DNA of 64,000 nt from Shigella phage ESh21: the sequence record ON528731, one strand, 5' to 3'. The notes beneath the pieces were generated by a model, which worked only from the letters and a program-made list of their open reading frames with translations, was not told where the DNA came from and did no database searches. A program made the position numbers and the translations under genes. Positions within the stretch are counted from its first letter, which is position 1. Each line of letters begins with the position of its first letter. Shown here in pieces: positions 25,473 through 31,544 of this stretch.

Positions 25473-25671
25473 AAAGTCAAGAGAAAAATTTGTAGCGGAT
25501 TAAAAAATAATTCTTGACTAGTTTTCTGTTTAGTGCTATGTGTACGCGCCCGTTTCATTCACAACATGCCAAAAATATTTTTAAAAATTTGCTTGACTCT
25601 AAAAAACCAGTCTTATAGTATTTGCATCAACGGGAAGCAATCCCAACAATCCTAAACTGGAGATTCAAAAA

Positions 25672-25878
25672 ATGTTATATCAACGGGAATTAATGATTGT
25701 CGATAATAACAAAACTAAAAAACGTCGCTTCTTTATGTTAATCTGTGACGTGTGGCAAAGAATATCTGAAAAGGATTATGACAAGTATGTTGATACATCA
25801 ATCAGGTCGGATTGTTATTTGACAAATCACACAAGACAGTTTACAAGACATACAGCAGTTTACTACTATGACGTTTAA
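25672..25878 (+). CDS. small orphan protein
   Basis: preceded by conserved CCTAAACTGGAGATTCAAAAA RBS module. Confidence 0.45.
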   Translation: MLYQRELMIVDNNKTKKRRFFMLICDVWQRISEKDYDKYVDTSIRSDCYLTNHTRQFTRHTAVYYYDV

Positions 25879-25890
25879 AAGGGCTTGACA

Positions 25891-26052
25891 ATGATTAAAG
25901 AAAGCAATGTAATACGTTACAAGGATTTAGACGGCTACCCTAAAACGGGAAAAGTTTTCTATCTTTACAAGTCAGTGATGGGTAATGACTGCATAGCCCT
26001 AACAAATGGCGACAAAATAACCATGAAAGATTTTATAAAAATTATTGCATAA
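25891..26052 (+). CDS. small orphan protein (53 aa)
   Basis: fills gap between cassette genes; weak RBS; below cutoff. Confidence 0.3.
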   Translation: MIKESNVIRYKDLDGYPKTGKVFYLYKSVMGNDCIALTNGDKITMKDFIKIIA

Positions 26053-26140
26053 AGTGCTTCACATGGGGTTTAAAAGGTAGTATCTTAAGCCCCAGATAAA
26101 GAACTTTATCACTAAACAATCCTAAACTGGAGAATCTAAA
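26053..26140 (+). promoter_or_regulatory. intergenic cassette: promoter-like TTCACA/TTTACA-17-TA(G/T)(C/T)(A/T)T embedded in GGGG..CCCC hairpin, then CCTAAACTGGAGA RBS
   Basis: near-identical copies at 26525, 27125, 28185, 29616; variants at 25640, 27830, 28700, 30175, 30347, 30940, 31180. Confidence 0.6.
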
Positions 26141-26524
26141 ATGAAAAAATACTATATGCCAAAGTTTATCAAGAAAGAAAACTTTCGCGATGCTCTGGAA
26201 AATTCCATGAATGAGCAATTCAAAGGCAAAATAATTGTTGTACACGCATACAATTTTAAGTATGATGTAAACGGTAACAAGATAAACCACTACACCGTTA
26301 CAATGTTAGATGATACACTCTCAGGAGAAAAAGCCATCATCAATGCACTGGCTGCACGTGGTAAAACGTTAATCCGTTGTGATAAACGCCGCTATCAGGG
26401 TGGCACTTATGGTTATGAGGATGCAATCTATCATCTTGCTAATATGGGTTACAATGTCGAAAAAGCTGGCGTATCTCAAATGATTGGTAGTGATGGGTAT
26501 GTAACAGATTTCAAAATTAACTAA
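26141..26524 (+). CDS. orphan protein
   Basis: 127 aa, cassette RBS. Confidence 0.5.
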   Translation: MKKYYMPKFIKKENFRDALENSMNEQFKGKIIVVHAYNFKYDVNGNKINHYTVTMLDDTLSGEKAIINALAARGKTLIRCDKRRYQGGTYGYEDAIYHLANMGYNVEKAGVSQMIGSDGYVTDFKIN

Positions 26525-26611
26525 TAAAGTGCTTTACATGGGGTTTATGAGTTGCTAGTATAAGCCCCAGATAAAGAATTTTATCACTAACCTAAACTGG
26601 AGATTCTAAAA
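26525..26611 (+). promoter_or_regulatory. intergenic promoter-hairpin-RBS cassette
   Basis: AAGTGCTTTACATGGGGTTTATGAGTTGCTAGTATAAGCCCCAGATAAAG...CCTAAACTGGAGATTCTAAAAATG. Confidence 0.6.
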
Positions 26612-27124
26612 ATGAAATCAGTCGAAAGCACCTTTGAAGTTCAAAAAGAAAAATTTACTATCATCTTTGAAGCAATGAATGTTTATGAGCCTTCCCATTG
26701 TGTGGATAACTGGCAATTCACTGATGAGCATAAAGGAGGAGTTACAATCAAAGTTAAAAACTCAGAACGTAACGGCTACAAATATGCAATTCCTATGCAC
26801 TATGCGCTTTCACAGCTTGCCAGTGATTACGCAAAACAGGGAAGGGATAACCCATCATTAGCCGCTTACAAGAGCTTACAAGATGAACTAGAAAGGGATT
26901 TAGGGGCTAATAGCTACATTCTATACGCCTCAGTAGTTGACGCTGAAGGCAACACGGTTTTAAATAGTTTTTCCCTTGCGTATGGTTTTGATTGGTGCTA
27001 TCTTGACGGGGAAGATTTAGATTCACGCTTAAAAGAGGAAGTAAGCAATTCAGGTGCTGAAGAGGAAGTTTTAGAGCGCTTGGAAGATTTAAAAGATAGT
27101 GTGATGAATATCTTTAATATCTAA
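26612..27124 (+). CDS. orphan acidic protein
   Basis: 170 aa, acidic C-terminal half, cassette RBS. Confidence 0.5.
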   Translation: MKSVESTFEVQKEKFTIIFEAMNVYEPSHCVDNWQFTDEHKGGVTIKVKNSERNGYKYAIPMHYALSQLASDYAKQGRDNPSLAAYKSLQDELERDLGANSYILYASVVDAEGNTVLNSFSLAYGFDWCYLDGEDLDSRLKEEVSNSGAEEEVLERLEDLKDSVMNIFNI

Positions 27125-27209
27125 AAGTACTTTACATGGGGGTTATCAAGTTGCTAAGATAGCCCCAGATAAAGAGCTTTACCAACAATCCTAAACTGGA
27201 GAATCTAAA
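27125..27209 (+). promoter_or_regulatory. intergenic promoter-hairpin-RBS cassette
   Basis: same module as 26053. Confidence 0.6.
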
Positions 27210-27500
27210 ATGAAAATTCCTGCTAATGTACGCTCAAAGTTAAGCCAATTACTACAAAACATTTCTTTTGTAGAATCTCATAGACGTTCACAGGATGTTA
27301 TAGAGTGGTATCATGGGAAGATTAACAAGAAAGAAGTTTTAATCTGTATTTGGAACTTTCAAAAAGAACATGGCAAGCCATTGCTTCAGGTTGACATTTA
27401 TGATAATACTAGCAAATCAGCAGTAAAATCAAAAGCTGATATGATTGATTCATATGAAATTAGTCACACTGGTAGATTATCACACGTTGGGAAGGTTTAA
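27210..27500 (+). CDS. orphan protein
   Basis: 96 aa, cassette RBS. Confidence 0.5.
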   Translation: MKIPANVRSKLSQLLQNISFVESHRRSQDVIEWYHGKINKKEVLICIWNFQKEHGKPLLQVDIYDNTSKSAVKSKADMIDSYEISHTGRLSHVGKV

Positions 27501-27501
27501 A

Positions 27502-29615: not shown

Positions 29616-29700
29616 AGTACTTTACATGGGGCTTAAAAGGTAGTATCTTAAGCCCCAGATAAAGAGCTTTACCAACAATCCTAAACTGGAGAATCTAAAA
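29616..29700 (+). promoter_or_regulatory. intergenic promoter-hairpin-RBS cassette
   Basis: same module as 26053. Confidence 0.6.
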
Positions 29701-30042
29701 ATGGCATACGTAACAGTAATTACTGACAAAGAAAATTCATCTTGGTCTACTCAGGTTAGCGATAAAATGTCCCCTATGCAGTGTCTCAAGTACTTTGAGC
29801 AGTGGAACCGTGGGGAAGATGTAAGCCCTTTTCAGGTGATGCAGGTTGTACACGTTGACAATGACGGCAACAAAACAACACTTAACACTGAATACTACGC
29901 AAGCCGTTTTGAAACTAGAGCAGAGGCAATGAAACAATTACGTGAAAAGGGTTACAGTCACATAGCTGGATTAATCTGGAATGACTTACTAAAACAGCAG
30001 TGTATGACCTATGTCAAGCCTGAAAAAATCTTTATAAGCTAA
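29701..30042 (+). CDS. orphan protein
   Basis: 113 aa, cassette RBS. Confidence 0.5.
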   Translation: MAYVTVITDKENSSWSTQVSDKMSPMQCLKYFEQWNRGEDVSPFQVMQVVHVDNDGNKTTLNTEYYASRFETRAEAMKQLREKGYSHIAGLIWNDLLKQQCMTYVKPEKIFIS

Positions 30043-30228
30043 TCAGTAACTTACAAAATACTTTGAAAAAACTGTTGACTTTACCCCTTGACAATAGTAC
30101 ATTTGTTCGAGGGGGTTTATCTAAAAGGATTCACTTGAAAGATTCTTTATAGATAAGCCTTGCAATTGCTTCAAAGATTCTCTATAGTTCTCTCAGTTGG
30201 TTAACTTCCTAAACTGGAGATTCTAAAA

Positions 30229-30372
30229 TGATTATTTTGTATATGATGGTATTCTCAGTAGTGACCCCTTTCATACTCTTAATAGCCAGCGAAATAGATG
30301 ATAAAATCTTTGATAAAAAGCTTGCAAAGGCAAATCAAAACAAGTAAAGTATCTATCAAGGGGAAGGAATAA
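30229..30372 (+). CDS. very small membrane protein (47 aa)
   Basis: cassette RBS CCTAAACTGGAGATTCTAAAATG; hydrophobic N-terminus; below cutoff. Confidence 0.3.
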
Positions 30373-30411
30373 GGCTTCCCCCACTAAATAATCCTAAACT
30401 GGAGATTCAAA

Positions 30412-30939
30412 ATGAATAAGTTCACAGCAATCAATACTATCCGCTCAAAAGATGTAATGAAAAAACCTGTAAAAGACACTTTCGAATTTACTCTTAAAGA
30501 TAAGTTGTTTGCAGTTATCACGAAAGGGGAAGATAAAAAATATTACATTCATCGCCCAAATCAGCAAATGCTAACCACTAACAACTTTATGAAGGCTGTG
30601 GCAATGATTCTGCCTGATTTTATGGCTATCGTTGCAGAGATTCACGAAATGGCTATAAAAGCCACTAAAAACGAGCTAAACCGCTATAAAATGGCTTATG
30701 AGCGTTCTATCAAGTCTCATAATCTTTTTATTGCAATCCACCATACGGGGATGTATGCTATGGGGACGGGTAACCAACAATACCCGCTCTATGATGTAGA
30801 AAATATCTATACAGGTGATTATCCAACAACTAAATTTAAGATTACGCTGGGGGAGGCATTAACTAGGGGGATTCGACTTTACGAACAATCTCTAAAAAAC
30901 TTAGAAAATTCACTTGACGAAACGTTAGCGAATCTTTAA
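30412..30939 (+). CDS. orphan protein
   Basis: 175 aa, cassette RBS. Confidence 0.5.
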   Translation: MNKFTAINTIRSKDVMKKPVKDTFEFTLKDKLFAVITKGEDKKYYIHRPNQQMLTTNNFMKAVAMILPDFMAIVAEIHEMAIKATKNELNRYKMAYERSIKSHNLFIAIHHTGMYAMGTGNQQYPLYDVENIYTGDYPTTKFKITLGEALTRGIRLYEQSLKNLENSLDETLANL

Positions 30940-31002
30940 AGTATCTATCAAGGGGAAGGAATCACTTCCCCACTAAAAATTCCTAAACTGGAGACTTAAA
31001 AG

Positions 31003-31179
31003 ATGAATTTTGAACAGCGTATGATTGCAAAATTTGGTGCTAAACGTTGGGAAGAAATGAAAAAAGAGCATGAAGAAAAGAAAAATGAAGAAATGGTAGT
31101 CATCACTGGTACAGACTTGTTAAATCATTCAGTTACTAATTACATCATTTCCGGCAATTCTTACAAGAAAGTTATTTGA
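31003..31179 (+). CDS. small orphan protein (58 aa)
   Basis: cassette RBS variant CCTAAACTGGAGACTTAAAAGATG; below cutoff. Confidence 0.35.
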   Translation: MNFEQRMIAKFGAKRWEEMKKEHEEKKNEEMVVITGTDLLNHSVTNYIISGNSYKKVI

Positions 31180-31251
31180 TTAGTCTTGACAAGGGGCATA
31201 AAAGCCCCTACTTTAAGACTCTAAAACAATCCTAAACTGGAGATTCAAAAA

Positions 31252-31503
31252 ATGGCTACTATCCGCGCAACTGTAAACACTTTTGGTTTTAACGTGTTAG
31301 ATGTTAAGTTTGATATGGTAGGTACTGGTGATGCTTTTGGAATGGTTGAAATGTGCTTAAAGGCAACTATTCAGGACTATAAACCAACTGAAAACTTCTG
31401 GAAAGAAGTCAAGCAGGAAGTCTTGAAAGATGGTGTGACGTCTTACTATTGGGGTGATTCTCTTATCACGCTTTACCATCAAAAATTTGGTTATAATGAC
31501 TAA
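31252..31503 (+). CDS. orphan protein
   Basis: 83 aa; preceded by TTGACA-hairpin promoter and cassette RBS. Confidence 0.5.
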   Translation: MATIRATVNTFGFNVLDVKFDMVGTGDAFGMVEMCLKATIQDYKPTENFWKEVKQEVLKDGVTSYYWGDSLITLYHQKFGYND

Positions 31504-31544
31504 CAAGACGCCGCAACGGGGCAAATAGCCCCAGACACCTTTCA

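Follow-up and report, generated by a model that had tools for sequence, protein, structure and literature searches.

Shigella phage ESh21 carries, within the 64,000-nucleotide stretch of its genome analyzed here (sequence record ON528731; below, the window), an island of 15 small open reading frames (ORFs), most of which are introduced by a version of the same short DNA cassette. This arrangement raises the question of what the cassettes do and why one should stand before gene after gene. Our analyses suggest, with a probability of roughly 0.75, that the island represents the variable region of early genes in a Mooglevirus phage, organized as an array of self-contained expression sockets of the type known as promoter-early stem-loops (PeSLs). 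Each socket would start at the stop codon of the preceding gene, carry a sigma-70 promoter, a GC-rich stem-loop and a standard leader with CCTAAACTGGAGA, and end at the ATG of the next gene.

The source phage belongs to the Ounavirinae, genus Mooglevirus (Felix O1-like), a lineage with genomes of ~88 kb. Megablast of the 25.4–31.6 kb region matched 240 phage records, every one of them Felix O1-like, and the closest were Shigella phages ESh22 and SFPB and Citrobacter phage KMM4, all in the genus Mooglevirus. The island is the counterpart of Felix O1 genes 14–23. The Felix O1 genome paper (2010) considered the transcriptional regulation of these phages to be unknown, and literature searches found neither transcription-start data nor a PeSL-type description for Felix O1-like phages, only listings of repeats in two of them. 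In Felix O1, these were 57-bp and 39-bp direct repeats reported without interpretation; in the genome announcement for Mordin, a 26-bp repeat was likened to the SAS motif of mycobacteriophages.

Cassettes, promoter boxes and hairpins of the island

A sequence-only reading of the window had described a repeated cassette here, and this was borne out by our searches. CCTAAACTGGAGA occurs 12 times without a mismatch, always on the + strand and always within 25651–31243, against 0.14 copies expected from shuffled sequence. The five full copies of that reading were recovered by a repeat search as a single 93-nt family (26047, 26522, 27120, 28182 and 29610), within 3–6 nt of where it had placed them, and all seven of its variant copies were found (25586, 27823, 28674, 30160, 30316, 30907 and 31185). 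Profiles built from the type-A and type-B copies described below had no match elsewhere in the 64-kb window, even at E ≤ 10, and the ribosome sites of the other genes in the window are heterogeneous and without the CCTAAACTGGAGA module. The arrangement proved less uniform than had been proposed: the ORFs span 39–185 rather than 47–185 amino acids, and instead of a near-identical cassette before each gene there are four architectures (A and B with five copies each, C and D with one) before 12 of the 15 genes. The other three, g53 (25891), g108 (27502) and g78 (29379), have no cassette and sit directly after the preceding gene. The initiation region that had been called invariant is so for CCTAAACTGGAGA itself (12/12), but the bases 3' of it vary (e.g., CTTAAAAGATG, ATCTAAGATG).

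Every cassette ends at an ATG. In type A, the stop codon of the upstream gene lies in or just before the lower stem of a long hairpin in all five copies. Type B has an A-tract, a -35 box (TTGACA, TTGCAA, TTGACT or TTGACG), 17 nt and TAAAGT or TAGTAT, followed after ~10 nt by a short GC hairpin and then by the ribosome-site module. The single type-C copy has TTGCAA, 17 nt and TATAGT without a hairpin, and the type-D copy has TTGACA, 17 nt and TACTTT, with the spacer filled by a GGGGC/GCCCC hairpin. The cassettes, their ribosome-binding sites (RBS) and the genes they are predicted to drive are listed below, together with one plain hairpin.

25586–25671, + strand: type-B cassette 1; A-tract, TTGACT (25593), 17 nt, TAGTAT (to 25621), hairpin GGGAagcaaTCCC, RBS 25651; g68 (25672–25878) and the uncassetted g53 (25891–26052)
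26047–26140, + strand: type-A cassette 1; upstream stop in lower stem, TTCACA, 17 nt, TATCTT (26058–26086), hairpin 26046–26111, RBS 26121; g127 (26141–26524)
26522–26611, + strand: type-A cassette 2; TTTACA, 17 nt, TAGTAT (26533–26561), hairpin 26524–26584, RBS 26591; g170 (26612–27124); one-gene indel junction with respect to ESh22 and SFPB
27120–27209, + strand: type-A cassette 3; TTTACA, 18 nt, TAAGAT (27131–27160), hairpin 27124–27180, RBS 27190; g96 (27210–27500) and the uncassetted g108 (27502–27828)
27823–27911, + strand: type-B cassette 2; TTGCAA (27830), 17 nt, TAAAGT (27853–27858), 5'-proximal hairpin GGGGTaagcaaGCCCC, RBS 27892; g90 (27912–28184)
28182–28271, + strand: type-A cassette 4; TTTACA, 17 nt, TAGTAT (28193–28221), hairpin 28184–28244 (-26.1 kcal/mol, z -4.1), RBS 28251; g133 (28272–28673)
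28674–28757, + strand: type-B cassette 3; TTGACA, 17 nt, TAAAGT (28681–28709), hairpin GGGCaagcaaGCCC, RBS 28738; g185 (28758–29315)
29344–29362, + strand: plain GC hairpin AAGCCCCacacaGGGGCTT between g185 and g78 (29379–29615), without promoter and without U-run
29610–29700, + strand: type-A cassette 5; TTTACA, 17 nt, TATCTT (29621–29649), hairpin 29613–29671 (-27.8 kcal/mol, z -4.2), RBS 29680; g113 (29701–30042); indel junction relative to ESh22, SFPB and KMM4
30160–30227, + strand: type-C cassette; TTGCAA, 17 nt, TATAGT (30160–30188), no GC hairpin, RBS 30208; g39 (30228–30347); highly conserved 30043–30159 upstream
30316–30411, + strand: type-B cassette 4; TTGCAA (30322), 17 nt, TAAAGT (30345–30350), hairpin GGGGAAGgaataaggCTTCCCC, RBS 30393; g175 (30412–30939); chimeric relative to ESh22
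30907–31002, + strand: type-B cassette 5; TTGACG, 17 nt, TAAAGT (30914–30942), hairpin GGGGAAGgaatcaCTTCCCC, RBS 30982; g58 (31003–31179)
31185–31251, + strand: type-D cassette; TTGACA (31186), 17 nt, TACTTT (31209–31214), hairpin GGGGCataaaaGCCCC in the spacer, RBS 31231; g83 (31252–31503)

Conservation of the promoter boxes was assessed in 144 unique type-A and 73 unique type-B cassettes of relatives, which came from two scans of viral contigs and from GenBank loci. A first scan with a 14-mer was swamped by chance matches in unrelated contigs, and a fixed-gap pattern missed most copies; a variable-gap structured pattern matched only viral contigs between 54 and 94 kb long, most of them 84–94 kb, as would fit Ounavirinae genomes. 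Of the 144 type-A copies, 134 have a 17-nt spacer behind TTTACA, and the -10 box occurs as 17 different hexamers that share T at the first position (142 copies), A at the second (144) and T at the last (143). The first T and the A lie in an unpaired loop whose adjacent bases vary freely, so pairing cannot account for their conservation, and the pattern is, as judged by this comparison, a sigma-70 signature. In type B, the boxes are exactly 17 nt apart with TAnnnT in 72 of 73 copies, a count in which the TA...T frame formed part of the matching pattern. A promoter scan lists nine of the 12 window cassettes. The earlier proposal that the cassettes are promoters is supported by this comparative sigma-70 signature, which is accompanied by a conserved hairpin and a standard ribosome site. 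One additional candidate was rejected: as the -10 box of a second, upstream promoter with type-B geometry, the initial TAAAGT of type A had a best -35 match of 2.74/6 against a background of 2.55, and in 28 copies it reads AAAAGT.

Two intrinsic terminators, both listed as such in the Felix O1 paper, flank the island.

25195–25245, + strand: equivalent of Felix O1 terminator t13 (Table 2 of that paper), hairpin then U-run; -20.4 kcal/mol, z -3.4
31544–31569, + strand: equivalent of Felix O1 terminator t23, hairpin then UUUUU

The first ends the upstream rII/macro-domain block and the second ends the island. Because a canonical terminator precedes it, the island needs promoters of its own. In Felix O1, reverse-transcription PCR (RT-PCR) found ORF16, 20, 21 and 22, orthologues of island genes, to be maximal at 5 min. 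We hypothesize that host RNA polymerase initiates at the 12 promoters within 6 kb soon after infection and that the resulting short messages would have a uniform, A-rich and strongly translated leader. The predicted start sites are A26094, A26569, A27167, A28229 and A29657 for type A, 25628, 27865, 28716, 30357 and 30949 for type B, 30195 for type C and 31221 for type D.

The hairpin in the five full copies is larger than had been described. The GGGGYTTA/TAAGCCCC stem of the sequence-only reading is present, but it is only part of a three-segment helix of ~20 bp into which all five copies fold (-23 to -28 kcal/mol, z -2.7 to -4.2). The lower stem, (A)UAAAGU/ACUUUAU, contains or abuts the upstream stop codon; past a 1×1 mismatch lies a middle stem, CUUUA/UAAAG, whose 5' arm belongs to the -35 box; and beyond a small internal loop is an upper stem of 9–11 bp. 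In a MAFFT alignment of 55 type-A copies, 90.9% of cells are paired, compared with 33–55% when the 3' partner is slid, and just beyond the stem ends pairing falls to 17–30%. Compensatory pairs, counted in copies anchored on both sides, were found at upper-stem positions 3 (GC 133, UA 10), 7 (UA 115, AU 28) and 8 (AU 111, UA 23) and at lower-stem position 1 (GC 115, UA 15), and upper-stem position 9 has five pair types. G·U pairs on the sense strand only are frequent (46% at position 5 of the upper stem, 85% at position 0 of the lower). Antisense RNA would have A·C mismatches in their place, which suggests that the type-A structure matters in the sense RNA. In 15 copies, a TAAATT…GATTTA change in the lower stem breaks the palindromes of the individual boxes but keeps the pairing from box to box, which favors one long hairpin over two operator sites.

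The type-B hairpins comprise 31 distinct sequences and start 9–11 nt after the -10 box, ~3–4 nt from the expected start site. Given established work on 5' stem-loops and RNase E, hairpins so close to the predicted 5' end may serve as 5' stabilizers of the message. The type-A and type-D hairpins overlap their promoters and so would be present only in read-through RNA, where they could act as an attenuator, as a processing site for RNase III or as 3' protection of the upstream message. The modeled helix length and internal loop of type A are compatible with an RNase III site of the T7 early type.

Gene exchange at the cassettes

The sequence-only reading had also suggested that the cassettes could promote gene shuffling, and a comparison of islands showed that relatives do differ there, in whole genes gained or lost and in alleles replaced. 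Coverage of 80% or more of the island was reached in only one of 240 records; for an rII control stretch just as long, it was reached in 30 of 271. The rIIA/rIIB control is 99.9% identical to ESh22 in a single piece, and despite this the ESh22 island proteins range from 70 to 100% identity gene by gene. The window's g68 and g90 are 99–100% identical to SFPB and 90–99% to ESh22 (by DNA or protein measure), whereas the opposite holds for g127. When the region was aligned with eight relatives, 53 of the 64 internal alignment ends fell inside cassettes, which make up 17.8% of the region.

Individual junctions could be located in several cases. Both ESh22 and SFPB have an extra gene of 85 amino acids between g127 and g170, with a cassette on each side, where the window has one cassette. 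The window cassette equals the upstream ESh22 copy up to the ATG, and the indel junction therefore lies in the ribosome site or start codon. The window cassette before g175 is chimeric relative to ESh22, being identical in its 5' half and different in its 3' half. As g175 is preceded by a type-A cassette in ESh22 and by a type-B cassette in the window, cassette type is not tied to the gene. Tandem "empty" cassettes with no gene between them were observed in Michonne (- strand, ~6955–6780), where a complete cassette ends in ATG and directly joins the next CTTTACATGGGG, and in Mordin (3474–3620), where the join follows CTTTACCAA. These look like recombination scars or vacant sockets.

The comparison shows the cassettes to be 60–95 bp of near-identical DNA beside almost every gene, which act as homology arms when related phages recombine with one another or within themselves. 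Genes are deleted, inserted or allele-swapped one at a time, and the expression of their neighbors would not be disturbed. In lambdoid phages, short conserved intergenic linker or boundary sequences are recombination points between exchangeable modules; the island linkers differ in being regulatory cassettes that are repeated many times in a single genome.

The arrangement extends to Erwinia phage phiEa21-4 (Kolesnikvirus), in which the g170 orthologue is 42% identical and the same cassette architecture occurs in the same region. The phiEa21-4 cassette has AAAGTGCTTTACA, an upper stem of GGUG…CACC in which a G-C pair has given way to U-A with compensation, a loop that contains TAGTAT, and CAGATAAAGAGCTTT; its ribosome-site module is a different repeated sequence, CCCTTATAAAGGAATCAAAA. 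The cassette core is 75–85% identical between the window and phiEa21-4. Since the architecture is shared despite the divergence of g170, it is old in the subfamily and under selection.

Known systems and alternative explanations

PeSLs have been described in the T4-like phages RB49/phi1, T4/PST and KVP40/nt-1 (Arbiol et al. 2010, PMC2839356; Comeau et al. 2014, PMC4122927), in which a G-run/C-run stem-loop with G-T pairs takes one of five positions relative to the promoter boxes. As judged from these published descriptions, the island cassettes are closely similar: they start at the upstream stop, have a sigma-70 promoter with an N17 spacer and end in a Shine-Dalgarno sequence and ATG, and their G-run/C-run stem-loops lie between the -35 box and the -10 box, overlap the -10 box or stand just downstream. 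Both kinds of element are concentrated in hyperplastic regions, amid small genes without a known function, where they mark points of indel or replacement between close relatives, and the T4/PST -35 consensus, TTTACW, resembles the island TTTACA. Every computable PeSL feature is present in the island cassettes. The differences are that the island belongs to an Ounavirinae lineage of ~88 kb, that the ~20-bp, three-part type-A hairpin embeds both promoter boxes, that the leader and ribosome site form an invariant module, and that reporter activity and mini-circles have been shown for PeSLs whereas the island cassettes are known from sequence.

Several points weigh against reading the island as an array of this type. 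The promoter activity of the Ounavirinae cassettes is deduced from conservation only, the sites listed by a simple promoter scan exceed expectation only mildly in this region (42, with 28.4 ± 4.9 expected), and RT-PCR in Felix O1 put ORF14, 17, 19 and 23 at 25 min, not 5 min. The cassette copies are paralogues that can homogenize by gene conversion, and the compensatory counts overstate the number of independent events; in the 55-copy alignment, whole-alignment pair-type measures were no higher than in shuffles, and nine of 22 pairs are invariant and uninformative either way. BLAST ends also tend to stop at repeats for technical reasons, although the gene-by-gene mosaic of identity is independent of that. 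Lastly, no cassette hairpin is followed by a U-run such as the flanking t13 and t23 have, and a terminator scan found no terminator at these sites, which makes a PeSL-like terminator role doubtful.

This last point bears directly on the possibility that the hairpins are terminators or attenuators that insulate each gene, as for PeSLs. The PeSL stem-loops reduce downstream lacZ to a degree comparable with rrnB T1 (PMC2839356, PMC4122927), and every type-A and type-D hairpin of the island has its own promoter, as blocked read-through would require. The phage, however, bounds the island on either side with textbook hairpin-plus-U terminators, and as intrinsic terminators the cassette hairpins were rejected for want of a U-tract. 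They are probably read through, since g78, which follows a similar plain hairpin and lacks a promoter, is conserved even in the Erwinia phages. We therefore regard insulation by termination as unlikely.

The conserved parts could instead be protein-binding sites, with the palindromic TAAAG-NN-CTTTA boxes as operators at which a phage repressor would turn off early transcription or CCTAAACTGGAGA as the target of a translational regulator or nuclease, and to this we give a small chance. The ribosome-site module is invariant far beyond what a Shine-Dalgarno sequence needs (including CCTAAACT upstream of GGAG) and is unused by other genes, and the middle stem and CAGATAAAGAG never vary. The authors of the Mordin announcement likened the module to SAS, and a target of this kind has been suspected for the SAS and ESAS motifs of cluster K mycobacteriophages (Pope et al. 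2011, PMC3203893). The GATAAAG invariance is explained by pairing with the -35 box, though, the 15 TAAATT…GATTTA copies favor one long hairpin, and no candidate regulator was identified. Binding sites of this sort would be compatible with expression sockets. The SAS/ESAS motifs themselves resemble the island in being short, invariant and asymmetric, in lying just before many starts in one orientation, and in having, in a subset, an upstream imperfect inverted repeat with a variable spacer. Their authors found little support for an RNA hairpin at ESAS (PMC3203893), whereas the island arms covary and use G·U pairs. The island elements were rejected as SAS/ESAS: a start-associated motif is present, but its inverted repeat covaries and encloses a clear -35/-10 promoter, and host, phage lifestyle and sequences are unrelated.

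The early region of T7 holds small early genes that are transcribed by host polymerase, with irregular ~20-bp hairpins without U-runs; three left-end promoters there yield one long RNA, which is processed. The island likewise has small early genes and irregular ~20-bp hairpins without U-runs, but each of its hairpin-bearing cassettes has its own predicted promoter. Were it a T7-style operon, one or a few left-end promoters would serve it, the type-A hairpins would be RNase III sites that free single-gene messages, and the promoter boxes would be incidental. The type-A helix, ~20 bp long and interrupted by an internal loop ~10 bp down from the apical one, does have the geometry of T7 early RNase III sites; the compensatory changes and sense-strand G·U pairs indicate a role at the RNA level; and the hairpins lack U-runs, the plain one between g185 and g78 having to be read through. 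Such an operon is nevertheless distinctly unlikely: the first T and the A of the -10 box are invariant though unpaired, the 17-nt spacing is kept in 134 of 144 copies while nearby loop bases vary, types B and C have good promoters without a long helix, and an Rfam search of 25.0–33.2 kb at E ≤ 1 returned no family. Processing could still be the role of the hairpin within an expression socket.

A bolder version of the socket arrangement, which we consider rather unlikely, would make type A a dual-entry device in which initiated and RNase III-processed RNA share one 5' leader, as well as a natural platform for integrase-free gene exchange, from which single genes would leave as mini-circles and insert again, the phage counterpart of an integron array. 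In such a device, the expected sigma-70 start (A or G after CCCC, 7–9 nt past the -10 box) and the RNase III cut in read-through RNA (CCCC^AGAUAAAG) would both fall on the internal loop's 3' side.

That the cassettes are recent duplications or selfish spreading elements without a function of their own, as their repetition and unfixed gene association (g175 with type B here and type A in ESh22) might suggest, is hardly credible, given a core that is 75–85% identical in phiEa21-4 beside a g170 of 42% identity and the selection indicated by covarying stems and by a TA...T kept while its neighbors vary.

Island proteins, neighboring sequences and significance

The island genes are not the orphans that they had been taken for, as 14 of the 15 proteins fall in PHROG families (all of "unknown function") and about nine are conserved across Ounavirinae genera. 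Five (g170, g96, g90, g185 and g78) reach Erwinia phages at the protein level; g68, g108, g133 and g113 are common to Felixounavirus, Mooglevirus and SUSP2-like relatives, and g53, g39 and g58 are restricted. A search of complete E. coli genomes gave no match. No assignment was reached for g170. Homologues of g170 with ~40% identity occur outside the Ounavirinae, in PVP-SE1-like Salmonella phages (146–172 kb) and one Aeromonas phage, and one 99%-identical copy is deposited in an 88-kb E. coli "plasmid" that is probably a phage genome. The claim that no domain is recognizable held in that none of the 15 proteins has a Pfam match above cut-offs, but g185 has a predicted ADP-ribosyltransferase (ART) fold, and its family comprises 489 clusters at 50% identity.

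28758–29315, + strand: g185, predicted ART-fold protein with invariant H5-G-T, W26, Y36, D94 and S96

H5 of the HGT motif and Y36 are invariant in 68 diverse family members. Which residue is the acidic one of the H-Y-E/R-S-E triad is ambiguous: D94 never varies, and conservation of E83 and E98 is confined to the close set. Against curated ART families, g185 had no Pfam match above the cut-off and one of the 68 relatives touched PF01885 (Tpt1) at E 0.005; the g185 profile matched Tpt1 in the PDB at E 0.42 through the HGT motif only, a faint link. A macro-domain protein (Pfam PF01661, E 5e-7) is encoded at 24371–25165, directly before the island, and relatives have a polynucleotide kinase gene a few genes further upstream. 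The macro-domain protein and g185 might form a writer/eraser pair for ADP-ribosylation or have a link to RNA repair. For the possible part of the island in host takeover or anti-defence, which the sequence-only reading had raised, the sole pointers are this ART fold and the 5-min maximum of the four Felix O1 orthologues.

Other sequences in and around the island were also noted. Between t13 and the first island promoter (25229–25470) there are four direct repeats of 27–33 nt (TTTTCATTTCAAAATYGTGCAG / AAATTCATTTTCAATTTGTGCAGGT), followed by a C-rich run. The intergenic stretch at 30043–30159 is 86–99% identical in all relatives, including Felix O1 (90%), which exceeds both flanking genes, and contains several TTGACA-like boxes and the direct repeat AAAGATTCTYTATAG. 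Past the island terminator is a 1.6-kb ORF-free stretch (31570–33130) with dense short repeats ~11 nt apart (CTTGTTAR..., CTATAAAGRGCT); genes switch from the + to the - strand and the cumulative GC skew turns at this site, which may be an origin of replication or an array for protein binding. As expected in Felix O1-like phages, there are 25 clustered tRNA genes on the + strand (43879–48614). The idea that the island adjoins a physical genome end, like the first-entry regions of T5 and T7, was not supported, because the g170 orthologue of UAB_Phi87 is ~20 kb into its record, an argument for which the 608-bp terminal repeats of that phage were mapped experimentally and which assumes that the record begins at the mapped end.

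Felix O1-like phages are widely used in the typing and biocontrol of Salmonella, E. coli and Shigella, and a map of 12 predicted early promoters with predicted starts can now be offered for them. The cassettes also explain why near-identical isolates differ in this 6-kb stretch, and may serve as natural insertion sockets for engineering these phages. Among the products of the island, g185 is a concrete enzyme candidate, a predicted early protein with a predicted ART fold from a large uncharacterized family, encoded near a macro-domain gene. Overall, the array is real and well defined, and comparison gives clear evidence of constraint on the promoters, of constraint on the hairpins in RNA and of gene exchange through the cassettes. 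Our data would extend the PeSL principle beyond the T4-like phages, where alone such an arrangement has so far been described, and regulatory cassettes that are recombination linkers at the same time may be a general answer to the turnover of accessory genes in phages.

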